The notes under the pieces are model-generated. The model had not been told where the DNA came from. It ran no database searches and saw only the letters and a program-made list of their open reading frames with translations. Positions 50,578 to 51,744 of a stretch of DNA of 64,000 nucleotides are shown piece after piece. How positions within the stretch are numbered: position 1 is the first letter of the stretch; each line of letters opens with the position of its first letter. Where the stretch lies: assembly GCA_951812955.1 (NCBI GenBank), contig OX638340.1, positions 1,056,001 through 1,120,000 of the forward strand, in the 5' to 3' direction. The stretch comes from an uncultured Gemmatimonadota bacterium. Its GTDB lineage: Bacteria; JAAXHH01. Both the position numbers and the translations under genes were made by a program.

Positions 50578-51744
50578 TTATGGAAGCGAAATTTCACCGT
50601 TCCAGTTCTTCGGGAAGGCCTGGTATTCAGCATGTGGATAAGACTGCGCGTCAACTCCTGTGCTTTCGGTGTCGTTCAGTCCATCGACAGAAACGGTAGC
50701 ATCCAAGCTGGCCAGATAGTCCAGCAATTCCCAAGCCGCCGATATGTTTACGCCGAAATTGTCGAGTGTATCTATGGACGCCAGGAACTCTTCTTCTTCC
50801 TCTTCCTCTTCTTCTTCGCCTTCACCTTCACCTTCTCCCTCACCTTCGCCTTCTCCCTCACCCTCTTCCTCCTCGTCGTCGGGAAAAGGGATGATCTGAT
50901 TGATCCCCGCGTGGTTTATCGCGATGATGTTACCCGCGTGATCGAAGACCGGGCTCCCGCTCGTTCCACCACGGGTGGCGAGGTTATAGTGGACCAGGTC
51001 CCCGGTGTTTATTGGGAAATCCAGAAAGGACGGATTATAGAACGGCCGAAGCGCACTGATCGTACCATCCTTGAAACTGGCGACCGGAAGAATAGCGTCG
51101 AAGATCCGAGGCAATCTCGGAAAGCCGAGGGTTCCAACGGGTTGCCCTGCACGCAGGTCATCGGTGTATTCTCTCGGCAGAAACGAAGGGGTAGCGTGGG
51201 AGATTTCGCCATTGATCCTGATCAAAGCGATATCCGCAGACATGACGGAACCATCGTATTCGGGGTGAAATACGTAAGGCGCCCACAAGTACGTTTCATC
51301 GCCGCCAATCAGGGTGCCCGTACGGGTGACGAACGGGATCGGGTTCAGTTCCACGATTTCCGGATCATTGATGAATTCCAAGACACCCTCGACCACGTGG
51401 GCATTGGTCCAGAGCTTGTCGGTGAAATACGCGCTGAAAGCGGTCCCGCCCGAAAAGGCTCCTTCGTCGGTCAACACACCGACAATGTAGATGGCATCCT
51501 GCAGATTGCCGCTCTCGATGACATCCGCCCAGTTGAGCGTCTCGCCGGGGACGCCCTGATCGCCCTTATCTCCCTGGGCTCCCTGGACGCCCTGGACGCC
51601 TTGGACGCCTTGAACACCCTGGGTTCCCTGGACGCCCTGGGCTCCCTGGACGCCCTGATCGCCCCGTGGACCCAGGGGACCCTGATCGCCCTTGCAGGCT
51701 ACCAGGACGAATGCAAATGCAAGTATCGTCGTTAACCTCGCCAT
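50578..51744 (-). CDS. Lipoprotein with collagen-like (Gly-X-Y)16 repeat, trypsin-like (S1) serine protease domain and acidic poly(Glu-Gly)/poly-Glu tract
   Basis: Lipobox LVAC after [34 protein letters not shown]... repeat. Protease triad context WTNAHVV (His), DIALIRI (Asp), GTSGSPVF (Ser). [32 protein letters not shown] tract. Strong RBS AAGGGGTG. Confidence 0.7.
   Translation of the reverse strand: [388 protein letters not shown]
50788..50880 (-). repeat. Simple-sequence repeat (ttc/ctc and 6-bp ttcacc/ttcgcc units) encoding the poly-E/poly-EG tract
   Basis: Plus strand reads ttcttcttcctcttcctcttcttcttcgccttcaccttcaccttctccctcaccttcgccttctccctcaccctcttcctcctcgtcgtc. Confidence 0.7.
51544..51690 (-). 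repeat. 9-bp periodic repeat encoding the collagen-like Gly-X-Y tract
   Basis: ggacgccctgggctccctggacgccctggacgccttggacgccttgaacaccctgggttccctggacgccctggg on the plus strand. Confidence 0.7.

Follow-up and report, generated by a model that had tools for sequence, protein, structure and literature searches.

The 64,000-nucleotide stretch analysed here (the window; positions 1,056,001 to 1,120,000 of contig OX638340.1, assembly GCA_951812955.1, from an uncultured Gemmatimonadota bacterium) carries on its minus strand, at 50578..51744, an open reading frame (ORF) that probably encodes a lipid-anchored and presumably homotrimeric serine protease held on a collagen-like stalk, a member of a conserved, uncharacterised family. 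We put the probability of this reading at roughly 60%. The ORF is a complete coding sequence (CDS) of 388 amino acids and a stop codon, in which a lipobox signal peptide ending at Cys17 is followed by 17 Gly-X-Y triplets, an S1 protease domain with an acidic insertion, and a C-terminal tail. An in-frame ATG lies further upstream, at 51798, and homologues begin at the equivalent of 51744; no sequence identical to the window protein, with either start, is on record. The parts of the gene are listed below, where A1 is an alignment of the window protein with 114 homologues, A2 an alignment of the protease part that was also used as a profile against PDB sequences, AF2 an AlphaFold2 monomer model built on A1, pLDDT its confidence (predicted local distance difference test), and L numbers designate loci encoding relatives in other genomes.

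50578..51744, minus strand: CDS of the collagen-stalked lipoprotein S1 protease (ORF with Pfam Collagen and Trypsin_2 matches; syntenic orthologues in L001-L008 and L018)
51694..51744, minus strand: lipoprotein signal peptide with lipobox L-V-A-C, Cys17 being the predicted lipidated first mature residue (PS51257-type rule)
51538..51690, minus strand: collagen-like stalk, residues 19-69, 17 Gly-X-Y triplets, mostly G-V/A/D-Q (Pfam PF01391; 9-bp period in Tandem Repeats Finder, TRF)
50887..51537, minus strand: chymotrypsin-fold protease domain, N-terminal and central part, residues 70-286
51397..51399, minus strand: catalytic His116 (TNAHV), invariant in A1, aligned to TNYHV of Deg1
51232..51234, minus strand: catalytic Asp171 (SADIALI), invariant in A1, aligned to DKDVAVL of Deg1
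50959..50961, minus strand: catalytic Ser262 (GGTSGSP), invariant in A1, aligned to GNSGGP of Deg1 and PepD
50788..50880, minus strand: acidic Asp/Glu/Gly tract, residues 289-319 (31 residues), a clade-specific insertion at a beta-hairpin tip (A2, AF2, PepD alignment)
50704..50787, minus strand: last beta-strand (NFGVNIS) and C-terminal helix (AAWELLDYL), residues 320-347 (AF2, alignment to PepD, 1y8t)
50635..50703, minus strand: variable, probably disordered linker, residues 348-370 (pLDDT below 50 at 350-362; poorly conserved and length-variable in A2)
50581..50634, minus strand: conserved C-terminal family motif (Y-P-)H-x-x-Y-Q-x-F-P-x-N-W-N-G-E-x-x-x-P, residues 371-388 (conservation, AF2)

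The head is an S1 protease of the Trypsin_2 type whose nearest relatives are the HtrA (S1C) and V8 (S1B) proteases. Two Pfam models match it within residues 88-281, Trypsin_2 (PF13365; E=4.8e-13, 50.5 bits, cutoff 27.6) and Trypsin (PF00089; E=4.7e-5, 23.7 bits, cutoff 20.6), and the AlphaFold2 model, with a mean pLDDT of 83.6 and values above 90 through the core, has the double beta-barrel chymotrypsin fold of S1 and the PA clan, its Foldseek neighbours being MucD, V8 protease, DegP and HtrA1. His116, Asp171 and Ser262 are invariant among the 115 family members in A1. An earlier, sequence-only reading of this DNA had picked out the same triad, and it holds up in profile alignment: against the HtrA protease Deg1 (3qo6) the A2 profile places TNAHV on TNYHV, SPDVAL on DKDVAV and GGTSGSP on PGNSGGP, and the Asp and Ser motifs align as well to PepD of Mycobacterium tuberculosis (1y8t). 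The profile similarity to these HtrA relatives is weak (E ~1e-5; ~20% identity), Pfam detects no PDZ domain in the protein, of which ~40 residues remain after the protease fold, and since that domain is missing we do not consider the protein a canonical HtrA. The ratio of nonsynonymous to synonymous substitution rates (dN/dS) between the window and its nearest relative, L006, is 0.12 for the protease, indicating purifying selection; as the triad and the surrounding GTSGSP and TNAHV motifs are invariant under such selection, catalysis has probably been retained.

The arrangement downstream of the catalytic Ser departs from what was first proposed, namely an acidic linker followed by a separate tail of ~70 residues. 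The tract lies inside the protease fold, residues 320-347 belong to that fold, and the true tail measures ~40 residues. In the AlphaFold2 model, strands 273-286 and 320-333 pair and flank the tract, and are followed by a helix at 334-347. Strand 320-333 and the helix have a high pLDDT, and the tract itself one of 64-70. The alignment to PepD runs across the tract into the last strand and helix ('gfgirvdevW' = 'GFAIPVDQA'), Trp338 in that helix is invariant in A1, and in A2 the tract appears as a clean insertion. From the Ser motif to the last strand there are 36-45 residues in most homologues, 65 here, and 88-92 in the homologues P0001-P0003. By alignment and model, the tract is inserted into the protease fold where HtrA has its loop L2 and chymotrypsin its 220-loop, a loop that borders the S1 pocket; judged across homologues, expansion has recurred in this hairpin loop behind the catalytic Ser. 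At the same hairpin tip, other paralogues carry low-complexity insertions unrelated to the acidic tract, namely (GDGTEPP)4 (L024) or ~100 residues rich in Pro, Gly, Asp and Asn (L053), and such insertions are also seen in L036 and P0082.

The C-terminal motif closes nearly every family member, including those that have no stalk, and its residues Tyr374, Pro378 and Trp381 are at least 90% conserved in A1. The model has a strand at 381-385, with a mean pLDDT of 92 for residues 371-380 and 69 for residues 381-388, and the motif is predicted to fold back as a strand onto the protease domain, where its role could be structural, that of a clasp between protomers, or that of an autoinhibitory pseudo-substrate.

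At the other end of the protein, residues 1-17 satisfy a lipobox rule of the PROSITE PS51257 type (a basic residue near the N-terminus, a hydrophobic region and [LVI][ASTVI][GAS]C within the first ~35 residues) through Arg3, the hydrophobic region and Cys17, and almost all full-length homologues have a corresponding Cys; the lipobox signal peptide (LVAC) recognised in the sequence-only reading is thereby borne out. The collagen-like tract that follows is likewise genuine and unbroken, as had been read, and matches Pfam Collagen (PF01391) with E=1.8e-9 and 37.7 bits against a cutoff of 27.2, the triplet count being 17 rather than 16 once GET is added. Read in all six frames, the window contains no other Gly-X-Y run of at least 7 triplets except a shadow of the stalk DNA in a shifted frame, and matches of the tract to PDB entries are compositional only.

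The character of the stalk becomes clearer when the stretch linking lipobox Cys to protease domain is compared across 127 non-redundant N-termini of the family. In these the stalk is a single unbroken Gly-X-Y run of 4-94 triplets (median 18), which begins exactly one residue past the Cys in 116 cases and in 114 directly abuts the protease domain's (L/M/F)(N/D/S)W motif. Pro accounts for 37% and Glu for 21% of the X positions; at the Y positions Gln makes up 43%, Pro, Ala and Thr 11-12% each and Arg 6%. Thirteen further sequences depart from the pattern, one through an interrupted stalk (L044) and most of the others through a stalk that is minimal or absent or through a variant motif at the junction. 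At the textbook rise of 0.286 nm per residue, the window stalk would, if triple-helical, be ~14.6 nm long, within a calculated family range of 3.4-81 nm. The longest stalks are those of L035 (94 triplets, ~80 nm if helical) and L052 (86 triplets, ~74 nm), and others of 37-45 triplets occur in L009, L034 and the second gene of L006. We favour a triple helix over a mere spacer because the Gly periodicity is kept while the sequence and length of the stalk vary freely; this strict periodicity across homologues is our main, indirect argument that the protein would form trimers.

Judged from their sequences, the members that share a lipobox, (GXY)4-94, a protease domain and a YxPFPxNWNGET tail define a conserved family that has yet to be characterised. 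A search with the protease domain by itself returned 329 proteins at E<=1e-3, most of them 320-385 residues long and matched by Pfam Collagen as well as Trypsin_2. When a profile was run against 1.84 billion cluster representatives (clusters at 50% identity), 125 clusters reached E<=1e-30 and 792 reached E<=1e-10; among the best 150 representatives listed, the tail motif is concentrated in the higher scorers, and remoter relatives have other architectures. In species-representative genomes, 106 loci encode relatives, most of them in Gemmatimonadota, including Longimicrobiales, and in metagenome-assembled genomes (MAGs) labelled Latescibacterota; stalk-less members among these loci come from Chloroflexota/Dehalococcoidia and Spirochaetia MAGs. 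NCBI names the relatives only as 'serine protease' or 'trypsin-like peptidase domain-containing protein', and NCBIfam has no model for the protein, offering sub-threshold matches of the Gly-X-Y region to Scl/Lcl only. The complete chromosome OZ241920.1 holds at least five paralogues (L029, L053 and L061, and also L012 and L024), three of them within ~30 kb, which suggests tandem amplification.

The evolution of the head differs from that of its surroundings. Between the window and L006, the seven flanking genes show synonymous divergences (dS) of 0.11-0.18 and 2-8% amino-acid differences, whereas the protease gene shows a dS of 0.96 and 17.7% amino-acid differences, its core (residues 70-286) reaching a dS of 1.30. 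Nucleotide identity to L006 is mostly 92-98% in the flanks, falls to 57-80% between 51995 and 50950, and is 86-89% from the acidic tract on, so that the island of divergence at ~50950-51995 comprises the protease core, the stalk and the upstream intergenic region. The nearest neighbours conflict accordingly: in the flanking genes and the protease C-terminus the window is closest to L006 (91-97%), and its protease core has the best match in L004 (86%) and reaches only 78% with L006. Other pairs of genomes show either a divergence island or none, as if discrete head alleles were in circulation. Positive selection for fast protease divergence was considered and rejected, given the dN/dS of 0.12, a dS that is itself 6-8 times that of the flanks, and the conflicting nearest neighbours. 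The signature is not one of relaxed selection or of simple positive selection; it is that of a protease head that would have been exchanged by recombination under purifying selection. A breakpoint lies close to the repeats of the acidic tract, which, as a single case, is no more than suggestive.

In the mechanism that we propose, the protein would be exported by the Sec pathway and lipidated, after which a triple helix ~15 nm long would form from residues 19-69 of three chains. One end of this rod would then bear the three lipid tails and the opposite end the three protease heads, the latter arranged much as in HtrA trimers, and the length of the stalk would determine how far from the membrane the active sites stand. 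Beside the substrate cleft, the disordered acidic brush may bias which substrates or cations the enzyme meets. The protein probably faces outward; we favour this orientation because paralogue stalks reach 94 triplets (~80 nm) and because the head appears to be exchanged by recombination, and a length of ~80 nm exceeds a periplasm, while exposed proteins are often exchanged in this way. Surface display of the protein is plausible.

Several points weigh against this reading. We infer trimerisation, the triple helix, lipidation, location and activity from sequence and model rather than directly. The stalk has a pLDDT of ~50 in the AlphaFold2 monomer model, and Pfam finds neither a PDZ domain nor a known trimerisation module. 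With Pro at only 3 of the 34 X and Y positions, seven GVQ triplets and a mere 17 triplets in all, the window stalk may form a helix that is marginally stable without a trimerising head, and its stability probably depends on the protease head. A stalk of 15 nm would fit inside the periplasm, so that outward display is not required here, and the C-terminal motif could block the active site and make the protein a latent enzyme.

Some of the same observations would suit a monomeric periplasmic lipoprotein, in which the Gly-X-Y tract forms no triple helix and is a flexible, protease-resistant spacer by which a quality-control protease of the HtrA kind is tied to either the inner or the outer membrane. 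We regard this as the main rival, though an unlikely one. The closest structural relatives of the protein are indeed periplasmic quality-control HtrA proteases, the stalk in the window is short, Pro-poor and modelled with low confidence, and ~15 nm would suit a periplasm. A spacer has no need of Gly at every third position, however, and yet the 127 N-termini consist of unbroken runs, with Pro enriched at X and Gln, Pro and Arg at Y. The paralogue stalks of 86-94 triplets (69-80 nm) moreover exceed periplasmic dimensions, and housekeeping periplasmic proteases are not usually shuffled by recombination.

The sequence-only reading had drawn attention to the DNA encoding the two low-complexity tracts, described as near-perfect repeats liable to slippage. 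Repeats are present at the places named, with a 9-bp period at 51549-51657 and periods of 3, 6, 12 and 18 bp at 50789-50868 in TRF, but they are not near-perfect. They match at a level of 76-84%, and perfect tandem repetition extends no further than 20 bp for the 9-bp unit (2.2 copies), 17 bp for the 6-bp unit (2.8) and 11 bp for the 3-bp unit (3.7), the degeneracy arising from a mixture of synonymous codons. All periods found (3, 6, 9, 12, 18 and 45 bp) are in frame, and since every unit is a multiple of 3 inside the ORF, ON/OFF phase variation is impossible; the phase-variable display that had been envisaged can thus be set aside. The suggestion of length variation fares differently in the two tracts. 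Among seven orthologues that are 70-80% identical, the stalk is almost constant, with 16 triplets in L004-L008 and L018 and 17 in the window, and the acidic insertion varies appreciably, from about 30 to 58 residues. L006 is the nearest relative and not the same strain; measured against it, the stalk in the window is longer by one triplet and the acidic tract shorter by four residues.

It is against this background that a contingency locus has to be judged, in which slippage in the 9-bp and 3/6-bp repeats would bring about rapid phase- or length-variable surface display. Tandem periodicity is detectable, the small differences from L006 are found where the flanks are ~95% identical, and lengths differ across the acidic tracts of the orthologues as well as the stalks of the family (4-94 triplets). 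Known contingency loci, however, have long perfect tracts, well above those here, and neither such a tract nor a unit not divisible by 3 was found in the gene; moreover, although the seven orthologues differ by 20-30% in protein sequence, every one of them has a stalk of 16-17 triplets. The comparison gave no evidence of rapid repeat-length variation among these orthologues, and we consider a contingency locus improbable. The DNA repeats seem rather to mirror a repetitive protein sequence whose length drifts over evolutionary time, chiefly in the acidic tract.

A further question is in which organisms the family is at work. The nearest locus, L006, belongs to Gemmatimonadetes APA_bin_41; it is syntenic with the window and its flanking DNA is ~95% identical, from which we conclude that the window comes from a close relative of APA_bin_41. 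Other MAGs with relatives bear the prefixes IRC1_, COS4_, RHO1_ and Plut_, which we take to refer to other sponges and a coral. The APA_bin series denotes MAGs from the sponge Aplysina aerophoba, and the MAG IRC_PAM_SB0661_bin_34 is from Ircinia ramosa (PMC11706023); the SB06xx_bin series occurs among Poribacteria sponge symbionts (PMC7883664).

These host links bring to mind a mimic of the host matrix, or adhesin, whose Gly-X-Y tract would bind or intercalate sponge collagen or collagen receptors and whose head would serve mainly as a binding or trimerising module, not as an enzyme. Apart from the naming of the nearest relative's MAG, which follows the Aplysina aerophoba series, the known collagen-like proteins Scl and Lcl are adhesins, and the sole NCBIfam similarity, a weak one, is to them. 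The sponge skeleton is rich in collagen, and genes for collagenases that would break it down were not identified in a study of MAGs (PMC8163846). The invariance of the triad and of its GTSGSP and TNAHV motifs, and the low dN/dS, nevertheless speak for an enzyme, and stalk-less family members keep the same head and tail, so that we give this alternative very little weight. A more elaborate proposal, which we consider a long shot, is that of a symbiosis device: a homotrimeric, lipid-anchored surface protease on its collagen stalk would mimic, and might dock into, the collagen matrix of a sponge or coral host, the polyanionic brush next to its active site would capture cationic host proteins or antimicrobial peptides, and its heads would be swapped between lineages by recombination to track host targets or to evade recognition. 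Horizontal acquisition of the gene from an animal host was also considered and rejected, since G+C is 0.53-0.61 across the gene against 0.54-0.66 in the nearby flanks and the distribution in bacteria is wide.

That the ORF might be an artefact of assembly or annotation, through collapsed repeats or a chimeric reading frame, deserves next to no credence. Repeats are hard to assemble, and L003 does carry frameshifts in this gene; however, the same in-frame architecture is found in more than 100 independent assemblies, complete chromosomes included, the ORF in the window is intact, and the L006 orthologue is collinear with it apart from small in-frame indels. In L003, at 5795-8500, both collagen-protease genes and a sulfatase gene are split by frameshifts, which are probably long-read assembly errors rather than marks of real pseudogenes. 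Gene calls from such contigs that start within the stalk (P0002, P0003, P0005 and similar) should be read with caution.

Downstream of the protease gene, in a seemingly intergenic stretch, lies what remains of a second copy:

50345..50545, minus strand: relic of a second tandem paralogue, with an in-frame stop (local blastx)

The relic reads VSLRAAVLTEALLAVACQGEWGETGA, a stop, GEQAESRSTWYGGNSGLQLAPDGLYQSFPFDWNGETVIP and a further stop, i.e. a signal peptide, a lipobox and three Gly-X-Y triplets joined straight to the family tail. By blastx it is 78% identical to the last 36 residues of P0075, and its signal peptide matches those of P0075, P0076 and P0023. Relative to positions 5268-6355 of L006 it is short of ~1.09 kb, comprising most of the stalk and the whole protease domain; at this position L006 has an intact second gene with a 37-triplet stalk, and second genes, intact or frameshifted, occupy it in L001, L003 and L006.

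The locus is chromosomal and lies amid metabolic genes (aminotransferase, thiamine-binding protein, aldo-keto reductase, PhyH, sulfatase, metallo-beta-lactamase (MBL)-fold hydrolase and COX3); no functionally informative partner gene was found in the neighbourhood, and a scan for promoters and terminators stayed at background level. An ORF of 101 residues immediately downstream, at 49932-50237 on the minus strand, contains hydrophobic segments, which suggest a membrane protein, and shares 97% identity with the copy in L006; it has no Pfam or NCBIfam match. Functional coupling of the protease to this putative membrane protein was rejected, as the ORF accompanies syntenic orthologues only and not the paralogues elsewhere. 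The ORF reported antisense to the protease gene (50404-51735, plus strand), which had been dismissed as an artefact, has no Pfam match, consistent with that view. Other long antisense ORFs (150-690 residues), such as 47806-49869 on the plus strand, lie opposite real genes including those of the MBL-fold hydrolase and an amidohydrolase. The long antisense ORFs in the window look like by-products of its high G+C content (about 0.55-0.65).

Collagen-like stalk, HtrA/V8-like serine protease and lipid anchor are each known modules, and it is their apparent combination for which we found no published description: the literature searched, on collagen-like tracts with serine proteases and lipoproteins, on collagen in sponge symbionts, on trimerisation of bacterial collagens and on eukaryote-like proteins, does not describe the architecture. 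The judgement that such a coupling is unusual agrees with this, while the conservation of the family means that it is no one-off. Of the S1C proteases HtrA, DegP, DegS and PepD, the protease domain is most similar to DegP and HtrA. It differs from them by its ~20% identity and the missing PDZ domain, by a lipidated Cys and collagen stalk in place of a transmembrane helix, and by a long L2 hairpin and YxPFPxNWNGET motif of its own; the likeness proposed to DegS is that of a membrane-tethered HtrA trimer. The staphylococcal V8/Esp glutamyl endopeptidases (S1B) are secreted monomeric zymogens with N-terminal propeptides, from which the window protein differs by its stalk and lipid anchor.

With Scl1/Scl2 of Streptococcus, Lcl of Legionella and BclA of Bacillus, the window protein has in common an uninterrupted Gly-X-Y tract, free of hydroxyproline, beside a globular domain on an anchored surface protein. 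The BclA and Scl/Lcl models match it weakly. The NCBIfam models for Scl1/Scl2/Lcl (NF038330, NF038329 and NF046116) score 32-39 bits, in the Gly-X-Y region only, against cutoffs of 325-500; as these scores lie far below the cutoffs, the protein is not an Scl/Lcl orthologue. The heads of Scl, Lcl and BclA are adhesive or structural and their anchors are LPXTG, the exosporium or other, whereas here the head is a protease and the predicted anchor an N-terminal lipid.

A functional analogy, in which a collagen helix is the rigid stalk that positions hydrolase heads, is offered in animals by C1q with C1r/C1s, mannose-binding lectin with MASP and ColQ with acetylcholinesterase, and in phages by the prophage hyaluronidase HylP, which has a Gly-X-Y motif. 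In the C1, mannose-binding lectin and ColQ assemblies enzyme and stalk are separate polypeptides, the one bound to the other, whereas in the window protein stalk and protease form one chain; the catalytic domains of MASP and C1r share the S1 fold with the window head, and beyond that fold and Gly-X-Y composition there is no evolutionary relationship. The match of the collagen tract to the hyaluronoglucosaminidase chain 6x3m is not significant (E=0.28). Braun's Lpp, a trimeric, N-terminally lipidated rod that acts as a ruler of envelope distance, is an alpha-helical coiled coil without an enzymatic head. It has no sequence similarity to the window protein and would be the model for a periplasmic-ruler version of the spacer discussed above.

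If the stalk truly is a triple helix, the protein would be a natural single-chain counterpart of the C1 and mannose-binding lectin-MASP assemblies, and a bacterial collagen with an enzyme as its trimerising head. The family would then provide a test case for the folding of hydroxyproline-free, Gln-rich triple helices over 4-94 triplets, and possibly a scaffold on which enzymes could be displayed at a set distance. The family to which the gene belongs is multi-copy and apparently shuffled by recombination, and it occurs in lineages that include sponge symbionts, bacteria for which few molecular interfaces with the host have been worked out.

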